NCBI GenBank assembly: GCA_965208325.1
Contig: OZ242326.1
Location: 4,384,001-4,448,000, forward strand
Direction: 5' to 3'
From: Candidatus Poribacteria bacterium
Lineage (GTDB): Bacteria; Poribacteria; WGA-4E; PCPOR2b
Length of the DNA stretch: 64,000 nt
This document shows positions 13,541 through 16,009 of the stretch, piece by piece (the stretch's first letter is position 1; every line of letters begins with the position of its first letter). The position numbers were made by a program, and so were the translations under genes. The notes under the pieces are model-generated. The model made no database searches, was not told the DNA's origin, and saw nothing but the letters and a program-made list of their open reading frames with translations.

Positions 13541-13562
13541 GGGGGAAAGTTAGAAGAATAAT

Positions 13563-13660
13563 GAGTAAAGCGTAATGCGTAATGCGTAATGCGTAATGAG
13601 TAATGAGTAATGAGTAATGCGTAATGAGTAATACGTAATGCGTAATGCGTAATGCGTGAT
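13563..13660 (+). repeat. Heptamer tandem repeat RMGTAAT, 14 units
   Basis: Counted directly: GCGTAAT/GAGTAAT/ACGTAAT units between the four-helix-bundle stop and the atpG start. Confidence 0.95.
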
Positions 13661-13669
13661 TAAGAAGGA

Positions 13670-14128
13670 TTAGTCGTTTAGGGGTGTTTCGGTGTCGTCG
13701 ATATTGTAGGGTTCAGATTCTTCTTTTAAATTAGATTTTCTCTGATTTGAAAGCATCACGAGCAATAATCGGATAATTTCGGTCATCAATTCTAAGCGGT
13801 GATCGATAATAGATTCATTCAGAATGAAGCGGGCTTTGAAATACCAATCTCGGCACTCTCGAGCCGATCCGAGCGCATATTCGTAAAACCGGGCGCGGTC
13901 TCTATCGCTGCTTCGGCTGAATCCTTCGGCGATATTTGCGCTGATTGAACCGAGTGATCTGCAAAGCTGATCGGATAAAGAAACAGCGCGTCTGTCTTTA
14001 GCCAGCGCTGTGATGTCGGCCCAGCCGATATTCGCGGCGTACAGCGCCAACCGGTAGACCTTTACCCTCCATAGTGCATCGCCGGTAATGCTTTCAGGTA
14101 CCGTCCGCTGCCACTCCTCGAACTTCAT
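13670..14128 (-). CDS. Four helix bundle protein (TIGR02436 / 23S-IVS-protein-like family)
   Basis: KVYRLA, DQLCRSLGSISANIAEGFSR, ARFYEYALGSARE family motifs. Confidence 0.9.
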   Translation of the reverse strand: MKFEEWQRTVPESITGDALWRVKVYRLALYAANIGWADITALAKDRRAVSLSDQLCRSLGSISANIAEGFSRSSDRDRARFYEYALGSARECRDWYFKARFILNESIIDHRLELMTEIIRLLLVMLSNQRKSNLKEESEPYNIDDTETPLND

Positions 14129-14158
14129 GGCTTTCGCCCTTTGCGCCTTAATGTATAT

Positions 14159-14193
14159 GAGTAATGCGTAATACGTAATGCGTAACTAGTAAT
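14159..14193 (+). repeat. Heptamer tandem repeat, 5 units
   Basis: GAGTAAT GCGTAAT ACGTAAT GCGTAAC TAGTAAT. Confidence 0.9.
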
Positions 14194-14244
14194 TCAACGC
14201 TCATTTCCAAAGCCTTACTAATAGCCTTTAATCGCCTCATGCAA
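14194..14244 (-). pseudogene. Degenerate duplicate of the last 16 codons and stop of atpA
   Basis: Translates LHEAIKGY**GFGNER* versus atp[17 protein letters not shown]; ungapped, 32/51 nt identical by hand count. Confidence 0.75.
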
Positions 14245-14248
14245 CTAC

Positions 14249-14376
14249 CAGAATGCAACGCCCTTTTATATGCCAATCTCGGCACTCTCGAGCCAATCCT
14301 AGCGCATATTCGAATTCCAAAGCGCATCGCCGGTAATACGCTCGGGCACAGTATTCTGCCACTCCCCGAACTTCAT
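14249..14376 (-). pseudogene. Internally deleted second copy of the four helix bundle gene
   Basis: MKFGEWQNTVPERITGDALW (17/20 identical to the intact gene) joined out of frame to FEYALGLARECRDWHIKGRCIL (matches residues 82-103); same upstream ggctttcgccctt. Confidence 0.9.
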
Positions 14377-14394
14377 GGCTTTCGCCCTTGCTTC

Positions 14395-14482
14395 TTACGC
14401 ATTACGTATTACGTATTACGTATTTTTCCTAACGAGTAACGAGTAATACGTAATACGTAATACGTAATACGTAATACGCAAC
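14395..14482. repeat. Two heptamer arrays in inverted orientation (4 and 7 units) directly after the atpA stop
   Basis: TTACGYA x4 at 14395-14422 facing RMGTAAY-like x7 at 14434-14482. Confidence 0.9.
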
Positions 14483-16009
14483 TCATAGCTCATTACTAAA
14501 TTCACCTTTAAAACTCTTTACAGCCTCATGCAGTTTGTCAATCAATTCATCACTGAGTTGTCCCGACTCTGCAATCTCCTTGAGGATGTCCGCGTGATTT
14601 CTCTCCATATATGCCAAGAATTCGGATTCAAACCGCGCCACCAAATTTGTTTCAATGTCGTCCAGATACCCGTTCGATCCGCAGAAAATAGAGGCAATCT
14701 GTTTCTCGACAGGCATTGGCTCATATTGAGGTTGTTTCAGCAATTCAACCAACCGCTCACCACGCCGAAGCTGGCTTTGCGTTGAAGCGTCGAGGTCGGA
14801 ACCGAACTGCGCGAAGGCGGCAACTTCGCGGAAACTCGCCAGATCAAGTTTCAGCGTCCCCGCAACTTCGTCCGATTTCATGGCTTTGGTCTGCGCATCG
14901 CCGCCGACGCGAGACACCGAGGTGCCTACATCTATTGCCGGACGGACGCCTTGATTGAAGAGTTCGGAAGTCAGGTAAATCTGTCCGTCGGTAATCGAAA
15001 TCACATTGGTCGGGATGTAGGTTGTGAGATCGCCTTCGAAAATTTCAATAATTGGCAATGAGGTCAACGAACCCCCGCCCAAGTCGTCGCTGAGTTTTGC
15101 GGCGCGTTCCAACAGCCGTGAGTGGAGATAGAATACGTCGCCCGGATATGCTTCGCGCCCCGGCGGGCGGCGTGAGAGCAGCGACATCTGGCGGTATGCC
15201 CACGCATGTTTGGTCAAGTCGTCGTAAATTACCAGTGCGTGCTGCCCCTTGTCGCGGAAATATTCACCCATCGAGGTGCCCGTGTAGGGCGCAAGATATT
15301 GGAGCGGGGACGGTTCGCTCGCCGGCGCGGAAACGACAATGGTGTAATCCATCGCGCCGTGTTCTTCTAGGGTATTCACGACCTGCGCGACGGTCGAACC
15401 CTTCTGTCCGACGGCCACATAGATGCAAAACACGCCGGTATTTTTTTGATTGATGATAGTATCAATCGGGATAGCCGTCTTGCCCGTTTGACGGTCGCCG
15501 ATAATTAGCTCGCGCTGCCCTCGTCCGATGGGCGTCATGCTGTCAATCGCCTTTAAACCTGTATAAAGCGGTTCGTTCACGGGCTGGCGTTGGACGATTC
15601 CCAGCCCCTTCCGCTCAACGGGGAGGGTCTGCTCGGTCTTAATTTCTCCTTTTCCGTCAATCGGTTGTCCGAGCGCGTTCACGGCGCGCCCAAGCAGCGC
15701 CTCGCCGACGGGCACTTCAAGCAGCCTGTTCGTGCGCTTGGCGATATCGCCCTCGTGGATTAGCTTATCCTCGCCGAAGAGAACGCAGCCGACGTTGTCC
15801 TCTTCGAGGTTGAACGCCATCCCGAACACCTCGTTCGGGAATTCAACCATCTCGCTCGCCATAACGTTGGCAAGCCCGTGCACGCGGGCAATACCGTCGC
15901 CGACATCCAACACCGTTCCGGAGTCGTAAACGTCGACCTGCTGGCTGTATTGCAGCAGTTGTTGCTTTAATATGTTTGAAACCTCATCGGGTCTAACTTC
16001 TCTTGCCAT
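14483..16009 (-). CDS. atpA: ATP synthase F1 alpha subunit
   Basis: [40 protein letters not shown]. Confidence 0.98.

Follow-up and report, generated by a model that had tools for sequence, protein, structure and literature searches.

In this work, we analysed a 64,000-nucleotide stretch of a Candidatus Poribacteria genome (hereafter the window) and found that the spacer between its atpA and atpG genes is occupied by a cassette of about 0.5 kb. It contains one gene of the 23S-rRNA-IVS-protein/TIGR02436 family (N-extended subfamily of about 150 aa), with an array of RCGTAAT heptamers upstream of the gene and a complementary array of ATTACGY heptamers downstream. The explanation we favour, at a probability of roughly 0.7, is that of an old, vertically kept arm-gene-arm cassette, whose arms would pair and be recognised by the encoded protein, together with one local tandem duplication.

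The PF05635/TIGR02436 family is large and known mainly from 23S rRNA inserts and as the fold of Avd; to our knowledge, it has no assigned function. We unveil here a design in which a gene enclosed by complementary arms occurs inside ordinary operons of many phyla, the arms being tandem repeats whose unit follows the protein clade, and in which the gene is kept by selection but has repeatedly disappeared from a single orthologous site. Taken together, operon design, clade-linked unit and the interplay of selection and loss lead to a testable hypothesis on the function of the family, namely sequence-specific recognition of a repeat helix, and it is in this sense that we infer the function of the cassette. 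Our results also hint at where some of the heptamer arrays between bacterial genes, so far unexplained, may come from, and they correct an over-reading of the duplicated atpA tail, which is a plain tandem duplication. A separate lead concerns the handling of double-stranded RNA, as an entire order of sponge symbionts appears to have lost RNase III.

Organisation of the atpA-atpG spacer

The features of the locus are listed below in window coordinates; all lie on the minus strand and are given in transcription order, from atpA to atpG.

14483-16009, minus strand: atpA (F1 alpha; TIGR00962, E 5.7e-238), from whose final ~50 nt the duplicated tail derives
14430-14478, minus strand: H1, direct heptamers, about 7 in number (five ATTACGT followed by GTTACTC-type units; 5.1 + 2.4 copies by tandem-repeat finder), beginning 4 nt past the atpA stop
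14395-14424, minus strand: H2, about 4 inverted heptamers (ACGTAAT/GCGTAAG; 4.3 copies by tandem-repeat finder)
14249-14376, minus strand: B', truncated copy of the bundle gene, aligning to its nt 1-61 and 246-309
about 14189-14244, minus strand: A', orphan decayed copy of the final ~16 codons of atpA, with TAG at the would-be stop
14157-14193, minus strand: H3, 4-5 direct heptamers, corresponding in the second unit to H1 (4.1 copies at period 7 over 14157-14185, and a 14-base double unit in 2.5 copies over 14160-14193)
13670-14128, minus strand: intact four-helix-bundle gene, 152 aa, N-extended subfamily of TIGR02436/PF05635
13559-13657, minus strand: H4, 14 direct heptamers (ATTACGC/ATTACTC; 14.1 copies), the expanded downstream arm, ending 18 nt before the atpG start
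12674-13540, minus strand: atpG (F1 gamma; TIGR01146, E 4.5e-93), the downstream operon neighbour

The four heptamer tracts, the intact gene, the deleted copy and the decayed atpA tail all lie where an initial annotation of the window had placed them. The ancestral upstream arm is represented by H2. The cassette fills the intercistronic spacer, with its gene reading in the direction of the operon. The bundle gene is the sole ORF of the cassette at the atp site with family matches; no transposase was found there, and PADLOC defence-system models returned 0 families at E <= 0.1. Scanning the locus for promoters and terminators gave no signal above shuffles, and the hairpin formed by H1 and H2 has no U-tract.

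Family, fold and selection of the bundle protein

The 152-aa protein scored 68.7 bits against TIGR02436 (cut-off 24) and 62.3 bits against PF05635 (cut-off 33.8). Its core is basic (pI 9.3) and its C-terminal tail acidic. The AlphaFold model (pLDDT 92) is predicted to consist of four long helices (residues 23-43, 46-70, 75-101 and 105-130), and the best Foldseek matches in the PDB were 2rld and 2gsc (TM 0.82-0.89 on target), with an rmsd of 1.5-2.1 A in nine of the ten listed chains and 5.1 A for 2rld_A; 2gsc was also matched at the sequence level (E 1.5e-4). Within the motif GxxRxxxSxxxNxxE, reported for PF05635/TIGR02436 in PMC3936711, residues R57, S61, N65 and E68 are present, the position of the leading G being taken by Q54. 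Q54 and E91 do not vary across the bundle alignments, and S61 and E68 hardly do. Finally, dN/dS values of 0.13-0.14 against the orthologues of genus g5, and of 0.08-0.18 overall, indicate at the sequence level that the bundle gene is under purifying selection.

Complementary arms across the family

Family loci were classified as armed when their complementary inverted arms scored 12 or more; loci were scanned with a subfamily alignment (A2), since a wider one (A1) was too diverse. Complementary arms were present at 26 of the 40 family loci in related genomes and at 64 of 78 loci from ten or more phyla, versus 21 of 932 small ORFs of the genome studied, bearing in mind that these control ORFs, like the orientations given below, stem from crude ORF heuristics and that related genomes are non-independent samples. 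Pairing arms between loci was tried as a control and discarded, units being shared by related cassettes (99th percentile 17); the 932 small ORFs were substituted. The expectation of the initial annotation that the flanks of other family genes carry repeat arrays is borne out by these counts, and the bundle gene with its arrays can be regarded as a genuine transposase-free unit recurring around other family members.

The sequence of the unit follows the protein. CGT at 7-nt spacing (RCGTRAW unit) was found at 61 of the 64 armed subfamily loci across phyla; among the 26 armed loci of the relatives, it occurred at nine of ten subfamily loci and at one of the 16 belonging to other bundle clades. 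When mapped on the protein tree, arm type required the minimum possible number of changes. That RCGTRAW follows the subfamily over ten or more phyla supports, indirectly, the earlier suggestion that protein and repeat target belong together. An octamer, repeat (GAGAAAAC)n, also occurs as an arm type, with an octamer clade of proteins.

Most cassettes are co-oriented with their neighbours, downstream (31/36 loci in relatives, 63/75 across phyla) as well as upstream (27/37 and 58/71, respectively). Across phyla, these neighbours are operon partners of many ordinary kinds, which contradicts the preference for the ends of housekeeping genes that had been proposed.

Age and descent at the atp site

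The atpA-atpG spacer was inspected in 29 of 30 relatives. An intact orthologue was found in five relatives from three other genera, a gene remnant in two, an arm-only footprint in three, a hicBA pair in four and an empty spacer in 15; the empty sites that had been anticipated do exist. The other genera also have an inverted heptamer arm upstream of the gene (mostly ~3 units, 2 in G004), and the arm-gene-arm layout is alike in the five relatives.

In the protein tree, the six atp-site proteins form one group (support 86/98); the placement of the window's protein inside genus g5 is weakly supported, and its branch is long. Within this genus, dS of the bundle gene (0.41-0.70) is close to that of atpG (0.58-0.72). 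Such similar dS values, along with the single atp-site group, point to one old insertion followed by vertical inheritance, and contradict repeated landing at the atp site. The cassette has therefore been in the atp spacer since before the divergence of four genera of Candidatus Poribacteria-type genomes, and its repeated loss by internal deletion left the arm-only footprints.

Predicted arm pairing and proposed mechanism

For the orthologue of G018, the minimum-energy and centroid RNA folds alike contain a stem between the arms that closes the whole ORF. At the locus of the window, the same two folds gave a local 22-bp H1:H2 hairpin and left H4 unpaired; the closed-stem topology is broken, the bundle gene being intact nonetheless. 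Among arm mismatches on the sense strand, the excess of G:U (46) over A:C (35) was not significant and gave no signature of strand or RNA, so that pairing of the arms could act equally in DNA.

The catalytic domain of RNase III was found neither in this genome nor in any of the 75 genomes of the order, versus four of four genomes from the other families of the phylum and eight of 14 controls. This result makes classic IVS excision doubtful here, and removes the enzyme that renders the IVS analogy mechanistic.

By analogy with ORF-bearing 23S rRNA intervening sequences (IVSs), we propose that the gene is looped out through pairing between the two arms, which would take place most probably at the level of the operon transcript. 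The bundle protein would recognise the arms in a sequence-specific manner, as suggested by the RCGTRAW unit travelling with the protein clade across phyla. Since the order seems devoid of RNase III, the stem is more likely to serve as a stable protein-bound clamp or insulator than as a cleavage site. In the genome studied, the topology would be altered, the upstream arm being sequestered locally by a new direct array and the intact gene having come to lie between two direct arrays. Counting against this proposal, arrays can do without the gene, as seen at the 32 gene-less array loci of this genome and in the arrays of G007, a genome without TIGR02436 match.

A wider reading, which we consider speculative and rather improbable as a whole, would have each S23p/Avd-like clade pair sequence-specifically with its own 7- or 8-nt unit, the cassette being an autonomous 'messenger-RNA intervening sequence'. 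in Poribacteria as well as in Chloroflexota, Verrucomicrobiota and Acidobacteriota, RCGTRAW would then have been retained; arms and protein would make the insert tolerable in operons and allow its spread between phyla; arrays seeded by cassettes would outlive gene loss and grow by slippage, giving rise to some of the dispersed heptamer or octamer spacer arrays; and double-stranded RNA structures would build up unprocessed in an order having lost RNase III.

Pairing might instead matter in DNA, with the arrays acting as hairpin or cruciform substrates in single-stranded DNA, the cassette being inserted, excised and copied by a host enzyme or by replication slippage, the dispersed arrays representing landing pads or scars, and the protein being cargo or helper. 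The equal frequency of G:U and A:C mismatches is compatible with this, as are deletion footprints ending within both arms in G010 and G015, the presence of one protein clade at five or more different sites, and inverted arrays in G004 too close together to hold a gene. The livG-livF spacer is likewise variable: G012 and G023 have a cassette with octamer arms there, G026 the degraded remains of a bundle gene, and the genus of the window a heptamer array alone. Two matches to Y1 transposases are present in the genome, and the distance to an array is 1.1 kb for one of the two. However, arms ~500 nt apart seldom extrude in duplex DNA, the strong co-orientation with neighbours fits an element dependent on read-through rather than random DNA insertion, the atp cassette stayed unmoved through the divergence of four genera, and no recombinase is linked to the cassettes, the flanking genes in the window being atpA and atpG. 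We therefore hold a DNA-level element to be unlikely, and retain the vertically kept cassette with pairing arms.

Gene-less arrays in this genome and its relatives

Arrays of at least 3 NTTAC[GT][CT] units number 38 in the genome versus 0 in three 1-Mb shuffles. For a single bundle gene, there are 33 array loci with the same heptamer unit, 32 of them gene-less, and the only inverted array is that of the bundle gene. The idea that solo arrays are recent cassette relics was abandoned, as a home-made bundle HMM detected no bundle remnant within 700 nt of any of these 32 loci. Outside the atp spacer, the arrays located between co-directional ORFs are 19 in sense and six in antisense; the median distance from array to next start is 53 nt (all 22 sense arrays, including the 3 of the atp spacer).

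One gene facing so many arrays, their mostly sense orientation and proximity to starts, and the clade-specific arm unit would suit a role of the bundle protein as a trans-acting regulator, targeting AUUACGY repeats within leaders (5' or intercistronic) of ~30 operons and using its own flanks for autoregulation. G010 offers a parallel, with one octamer-armed gene and 117 matches to that octamer pattern. Other genomes do not conform to this scheme: G007, without any TIGR02436 match, has 63 octamer and 24 heptamer pattern matches, and G013 has 66 octamer matches while its sole family match has other arms. Furthermore, the livG-livF array (~20 units in the genome studied) is retained with 4-6 units in three congeners lacking the matching gene, G001 and G002 having no family gene and G003 only one of another clade. 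Neither do pattern-match counts separate genomes with the atp gene from those without. Such a regulator thus appears distinctly improbable to us. A related rule, according to which the dominant array of a genome corresponds to the arms of its bundle gene, was also rejected, holding for G000 and G010 and failing in G007 and G013.

A single tandem duplication in the spacer

The initial annotation had described a unit made up of atpA tail, heptamers and bundle gene as present twice with reciprocal decay, and collinear alignment and junction mapping confirmed this description. The two units are collinear over atpA tail, heptamers, leader and bundle N-terminus, and the duplicated segment comprises:

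14249-14533, minus strand: copy 1
13820-14244, minus strand: copy 2

At the junction, bundle nt 309 is joined to the atpA tail (-50). Aligned with the intact gene, B' lacks 184 internal nt; it matched a home-made bundle-family HMM weakly (E 0.0012 in a small set of array flanks). The atpA-tail match alone scored 24, better than shuffled controls (mean 13.7, sd 2.5; 9 of 2000 reached the observed score), and A' was the best match to the atpA end among 4264 60-nt window pieces, atpA's own end excepted; at the level of the whole spacer, the tail score was reached by 2 of 300 shuffles. With arrays at other family genes and empty atp sites, this makes three observations whose absence the initial annotation had named as counting against it.

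From the alignments, a single tandem duplication of ~425 bp, running from the final ~50 nt of atpA to bundle nt 309, emerges as the best explanation of the doubled unit. It predicts the "reciprocal decay": bundle copy 1 was truncated from birth at the junction and lost 184 nt later, and the second atpA tail was an orphan from birth, then decayed.

Contigs from a run of another study, X5, also contain the duplicated form, which argues against an assembly artefact. Compared with the window, these contigs carry +7 nt at 14400 (H2 one unit longer) and -7 nt at 14443 (H1 one unit shorter), and cassette arrays do gain and lose whole units. Runs X6 and X7 cover the intact gene; over 14238-14354 their coverage is low or nil, and none of the contigs joins across. 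This gap is not read as a missing duplication. Array-to-array 'joints' in X4 were dismissed as locus variants, their sides being ~21 nt long and probably derived from other array loci.

The doubled unit had been interpreted as an element that carries host gene tail with it, i.e. a transposase-free mobile element landing at the 3' ends of housekeeping genes, with two insertion or transduplication events. The repetition of the unit, the many relatives whose atp spacers have no cassette and the occurrence of related cassettes at differing sites in different genomes would agree with it. Nonetheless, we consider it very unlikely: the units are adjacent and collinear, and the one junction accounts for both broken parts; the tail copy is restricted to this genome, none being found in the seven other cassette or remnant atp spacers (scores reached by 34-276 of 300 shuffles), so that the duplicated upstream-gene tails expected at other cassettes did not materialise; and the single group of atp-site genes, their atpG-like dS and the ordinary operon pairs flanking cassettes across phyla all point the other way. 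Being part of a 425-bp tandem duplication, the atpA tail is also unlike a short target-site duplication. Tail-like matches in spacers filled by hicBA (scores 28 and 24, 0/300 shuffles) were set aside as chance-like, their position differing in each genome.

Finally, that the arrays are independent simple-sequence repeats with a gene among them by chance is hardly credible, for although arrays are common, mostly gene-less and vary by whole units as ordinary SSRs do, complementary arms are far more frequent at family genes than at control ORFs, the sole inverted array of the genome sits at the bundle gene, and the arm-gene-arm layout is conserved at the atp site in three other genera.

Comparison with known systems

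In the literature searched, a bundle gene between complementary repeat arrays was not found described. The STRR heptamers of cyanobacteria are, like the arrays reported here, dispersed intergenic arrays of 7-nt units; their unit sequences are genome-specific, and we know neither of a function for them nor of a link to PF05635 genes.

Avd, the accessory protein of diversity-generating retroelements (DGR), acts on structured RNA together with its reverse transcriptase. The fold that the initial annotation held to be common to TIGR02436 proteins and Avd was recovered by Foldseek, with TM 0.70-0.84 on target and probability 1.00 (PDB 4dwl, 8ub7 and others), and both proteins are four-helix bundles with a basic core. 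In contrast, sequence identity is 8-10 % (E 0.1-0.4), and the bundle gene, whose neighbours are atpA and atpG, adjoins no reverse transcriptase or template/variable repeat, the heptamer arrays being the only repeats at the locus.

ORF-bearing 23S rRNA IVSs are the closest in build, encoding a PF05635 protein as the one small ORF of a ~0.4-0.5 kb insert (PMC4990558). In the same text, the S23p-encoding IVS of Coxiella burnetii has a 28-bp stem, the S23p protein is suggested not to be made, and occurrence is sporadic with vertical retention once acquired, as for the cassette. Terminal complementary sequences form an ORF-enclosing stem in such IVSs, as they do here in the fold of the G018 orthologue. 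The cassette differs by its location in the spacer of a protein-coding operon instead of 23S helix 9, 25 or 45, by arms that are tandem 7-nt arrays and not unique inverted repeats, by an arm unit specific to the protein clade and by a gene under purifying selection; moreover, IVSs are excised by RNase III, which was not found in the order of the cassette host.

In the 5'-UTR of the hmw genes of Haemophilus influenzae, a transcribed heptamer SSR pairs with a partner arm to form a long hairpin, and its copy number shifts by whole units, thereby tuning expression (PMC12721329). Heptamers lie upstream of a gene in both cases, and the cassette arrays also differ by whole units between populations. 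Unlike the cassette, the hmw SSR, as presented there, encloses no gene and depends on RNase III for its action and for changes in repeat number; it represents one contingency locus in a pathogen, whereas the cassette belongs to a family spread over phyla.

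Structure and origin of the doubled unit in the atpA-atpG spacer

In this part, we focused on the four-helix-bundle gene (TIGR02436/PF05635, hereafter bundle gene) that lies between heptamer arrays in the atpA-atpG spacer. The doubled layout claimed for this spacer in the initial annotation was confirmed, all parts being present as described. In transcription order, the features are as follows:

14483-16009, minus strand: atpA (TIGR00962, E 5.7e-238)
14430-14478, minus strand: H1, direct heptamers, array downstream of atpA
14395-14424, minus strand: H2, inverted heptamers
14249-14376, minus strand: B', shortened copy of the bundle gene (alignment to the intact gene)
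about 14189-14244, minus strand: A', decayed atpA tail (alignment)
14157-14193, minus strand: H3, direct heptamers
13670-14128, minus strand: intact bundle gene, 152 aa (TIGR02436 and PF05635)
13559-13657, minus strand: H4, 14 direct heptamers
12674-13540, minus strand: atpG

The intact bundle gene scored 68.7 bits against TIGR02436 (cut-off 24) and 62.3 bits against PF05635 (cut-off 33.8). Its product was modelled confidently as a four-helix bundle (pLDDT 92), the closest solved structures being 2rld and 2gsc (TM 0.82-0.89 on the target), and DGR Avd chains gave TM values of 0.70-0.84.

The two units are collinear in the alignment, which starts in the atpA tail and runs across the heptamers and a leader to nt 1-61 of the bundle gene. 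Against the intact gene, B' covers nt 1-61 and 246-309, with its end at nt 309; A' starts a few bases past this end. The match of A' to the atpA tail, taken alone, is better than shuffled controls (score 24; shuffles mean 13.7, sd 2.5, 9/2000 reaching at least 24), and A' is the top non-self match to the atpA tail among 4264 pieces of the window. One tandem duplication of about 425 bp, covering the segment from atpA -50 to bundle nt 309, would yield both units: the first copy would keep the selected end of atpA and have its bundle gene cut at the junction, while the second would carry an atpA tail without use, reading on into the remaining bundle gene. We consider it very probable that the doubled unit is such a local tandem duplication.

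The rival view, a mobile element carrying the tail of its host gene, was not upheld: a single local duplication suffices, and since it gives both broken parts, the "reciprocal decay" of the two units can be accounted for without a mobile element. The tail copy is moreover unique to the genome of the window (G000): the tail-versus-spacer score was reached there by 2/300 shuffles, whereas in the seven other atp spacers with a cassette or remnant, where duplicated tails were also looked for, it was reached by 34 to 276 of 300, i.e. at shuffle level in 7/7. Contigs of another study matching the window (run X5) share the doubled structure with few differences, so the duplication is not an assembly artefact of a single data set; they are longer by one heptamer at 14400 and shorter by one at 14443, and thus the arrays vary by whole units.

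Complementary arms around bundle genes

TIGR02436 matches were found in 19/31 genomes of the set. The arm test was carried out on 40 near-full-length loci from relatives (own locus, two contig-end loci and seven partial matches excluded; further TIGR02436 matches in relatives exist beyond these 40), each locus being scored by the strongest local complementarity of its 220-nt upstream flank to its 220-nt downstream flank, with a threshold of 12. Public species genomes were additionally scanned with an alignment of the window gene's subfamily, the clade of N-extended bundle proteins of about 150 aa; this yielded 412 confirmed stretches, 80 of them being retained. These 80 are spread over Chloroflexota, Verrucomicrobiota, Lentisphaerota, Acidobacteriota, Latescibacterota, Armatimonadota, Ignavibacteria, Rhodothermales, Marinimicrobia and Binatia.

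The expectation that arrays flank other genes of the family was borne out in the form of complementary arms: scores of at least 12 were obtained at 26/40 family loci of relatives and 64/78 testable subfamily loci from named records, against 21/932 control ORFs of 90-200 aa from the own genome, the control ORFs being called heuristically and related genomes being non-independent samples. Among the 78, the subset from records not titled Poribacteria, which also omits two 'uncultured bacterium' rows taken for the relative G004, gave 53/66. The arm units vary among loci (ACGTAAT, CGTGAAA, GAGAAAAC, GAAAGTGR, GCGAGGNA, CAGTGGC and others), yet the two flanks of any one locus remain complementary. 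Repeat arms around PF05635 genes were not found described in main-text extracts of PMC8700078, PMC4990558, PMC3936711 and PMC10910872.

In the control set, several small ORFs at G000:C1:4209827-4223642 and 3862388-3863284 have strongly complementary flanks (scores 17-35); further cassettes bracketed by repeats may be involved, or a 40-bp repeat may cause the effect. The 40-bp unit, arranged in tandem and built around a palindromic GCGGGGCAAGATGCCCCGC core, represents a second family of dispersed repeats in the genome and occurs in the window at 7472-7920, 27987-28187 and 49037-49324 (11, 5 and 7 copies, respectively). ORFs within another tandem repeat of the window (21832-23477; period 325-377 bp, about 4-6 copies, 91-92% identity) also ranked high in this control (G000 4405909-4406337).

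Arm unit and protein clade

A CGT at 7-nt spacing was found in 61/64 armed subfamily loci across phyla and in 9/10 armed loci of relatives from the window's subfamily, against 1/16 from other bundle clades. The subfamily consensus unit is R-C-G-T-R-A-W, with 79-87% agreement per position, positions 2-4 being inflated because CGT was used to set the phase. Mapped on the protein tree, arm type requires 15 changes, the lowest number possible (shuffled mean 26), a result that is alone no proof of co-evolution, labels being common to related genes. Subfamily proteins share only 52-65% identity between phyla, with silent sites saturated; a non-coding unit preserved to this degree points to a constraint on its sequence, beyond complementarity. 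Recognition of the arms by the encoded protein would be the simplest reading of this pattern.

Genomic location of the cassettes

The downstream ORF lies on the same strand as the bundle gene at 31/36 callable loci of relatives (40 loci) and at 63/75 of the public ones (80 loci); the corresponding values for the upstream ORF are 27/37 and 58/71. According to Pfam annotation of 97 co-oriented ORFs from records not titled Poribacteria, the flanking genes are ordinary operon partners, such as coxS/coxL, histidine kinase/response regulator, two ABC permease genes, FtsX/MacB, MoxR/DUF58 and prephenate dehydrogenase/EPSP synthase. A preference for the ends of housekeeping genes, as first proposed, is not supported by neighbours of such varied kinds across phyla; the niche of the cassette is the intercistronic spacer of any operon.

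Part of PMC3936711 reports 18 family genes within cas operons, taken for possible Cas-associated functions, and in PMC10910872 the 23S_rRNA_IVP domain is listed in a figure legend dealing with CRISPR-associated domains. As a guess, such genes would fit the habit of insertion between cistrons, and the repeat arms could perhaps be mistaken for CRISPR-like arrays.

The atpA-atpG spacer in relatives

The search covered 30 relatives of 13 genera, with 29 atpA-atpG spacers examined (G020 was matched, its spacer not being among them). An intact orthologue (62-70% aa identity) is present in five, i.e. G018, G017 and G011 (genus g5), G008 (g6) and G004 (g2). Two spacers hold a remnant of the 3' part of the gene (G016, G013), three hold heptamers only (the two arms are fused in G010 and G015; G002 has direct units alone) and four a hicB-hicA pair. 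The remaining 15 of the 29 are without trace, so that the empty sites sought in relatives do exist. In the other genera, the order is atpA stop, inverted RCGTAAT arm (mostly about 3 units, 2 in G004), gene, about 3 ATTACGY units and atpG.

The six atp-site bundle proteins form one group (support 86/98) in a tree of 35 family proteins of these genomes, from which eight loci with in-frame stops were excluded. Within g5, bundle dS (0.41-0.70) is similar to atpG dS (0.58-0.72). For the 13 pairs with estimable dS, dN/dS was 0.08-0.18 (own Nei-Gojobori script); it was about 0.13 between the own gene and g5 despite the long branch, and the own gene is still under constraint. Given the single protein group, the agreement of bundle and atpG dS in g5 and the low dN/dS, the data read as one old insertion, inherited vertically under purifying selection and lost repeatedly by deletion. 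A long, vertically inherited residence of the cassette in the atp spacer, with repeated decay, is likely.

In the G013 remnant (L007), an in-frame internal deletion has left a few codons from the start of the gene fused to ~38 from its end, and both arms are kept; translation of this decay intermediate could still occur. The hicB-hicA toxin-antitoxin pair (about 450 bp) replaces the bundle cassette in one congener and three genomes of another family (L010 in G003, L011 in G023, L015 in G029, L020 in G026). Pfam, run on the G023 pair, gave HicB_lk_antitox (E 3.5e-6) and HicA_toxin (E 4.9e-7), hicA appearing shortened. The atpA-atpG spacer seems to shelter small selfish modules.

RNA folding, RNase III and possible mechanism

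For the G018 orthologue, pairing of the arms is predicted by the minimum-energy RNA fold as well as by the centroid one, with the whole ORF looped (z-score -2.7; 0/100 shuffles fold as well). As modelled, this ORF enclosed by paired complementary ends resembles the S23p-bearing IVS of 23S rRNA; the Coxiella one, in the account given in part of PMC4990558, has complementary ends forming a 28-bp stem and is excised by RNase III. In the window, the predicted fold instead joins H1 and H2 in a perfect 22-bp local hairpin directly past the atpA stop, H4 being single-stranded and the intact bundle gene lying between two direct arrays.

The RNase III catalytic domain PF14622 was found in 0/75 genomes of the window's order and 0/2 of a second family of the same class, against 4/4 genomes from three other families of the phylum and 8/14 control genomes. 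Neither PF14622 nor PF00636 was found in the own genome, where TIGR02191 gave only a 33-bit match to a dsRBD-only ORF. This sole RNase III-like match, an ORF of 195 aa (G000:C1:2821072-2821659, i.e. L099:73-660, minus strand), has a double-stranded-RNA-binding motif at its N-terminus (PF00035, E 9e-11) but is without nuclease domain. An order-wide loss of RNase III, if true, would be unusual. Arm mismatches showed no excess of sense-strand G:U (46) over A:C (35). As there is no G:U excess and RNase III was not found in the order, the IVS mechanism is not simply carried over. In the hmw leader of Haemophilus influenzae, a transcribed heptamer array of variable length folds with its partner arm, in a system that requires RNase III (from a partial text of PMC12721329).

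Should arm pairing take place in RNA here, the resulting helix would probably stay uncut by the classic enzyme, RNase III; it might act as a protein-bound clamp holding the operon message around the insert, or as an insulator. To the parts observed and the general reading as an IVS-like cassette, taken together, we give a probability of about 0.7. The proposal that the arms work by pairing, be it in RNA or in DNA, and that the encoded protein reads them is tentative, and we assign it slightly less than even odds.

Heptamer arrays outside the cassette

The own genome contains 38 arrays of at least 3 NTTAC[GT][CT] units at 33 loci, against 0 in three 1-Mb shuffles. A bundle gene and an inverted array occur only at the atp locus, and no bundle remnant was found within 700 nt of the other 32. 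By crude ORF calls, arrays outside the atp spacer lie between co-directional ORFs with ATTACGY in sense in 19 cases and antisense in 6, and between ORFs on different strands in seven. Arrays are kept at orthologous sites with variable length. The gene is not needed for arrays, two relatives being array-rich without a matching family gene: G007 (no family match; 63 octamer and 24 heptamer pattern hits) and G013 (66 octamer hits; one family match, with other arms), the hits counting overlapping registers and not loci. Y1-transposase (PF01797) hits were recorded at G000:C1:3321944-3322279, about 1.1 kb from the heptamer array 3323437-3323471, and at 1955941-1956273.

At the atp site of G002, only direct units occur where relatives carry the cassette; therefore a one-sided array can be the leftover of a lost cassette. 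The largest solo array, of about 20 ATTACGY units (G000:C1:2180658-2180797, outside the window), occupies the spacer of a livG-like and a livF-like ABC gene, its end being 12 nt upstream of the start codon. Three congeners have 4-6 units there, and the same livG-livF spacer holds an octamer-armed bundle cassette in G012 and G023 and a degraded bundle remnant in G026.
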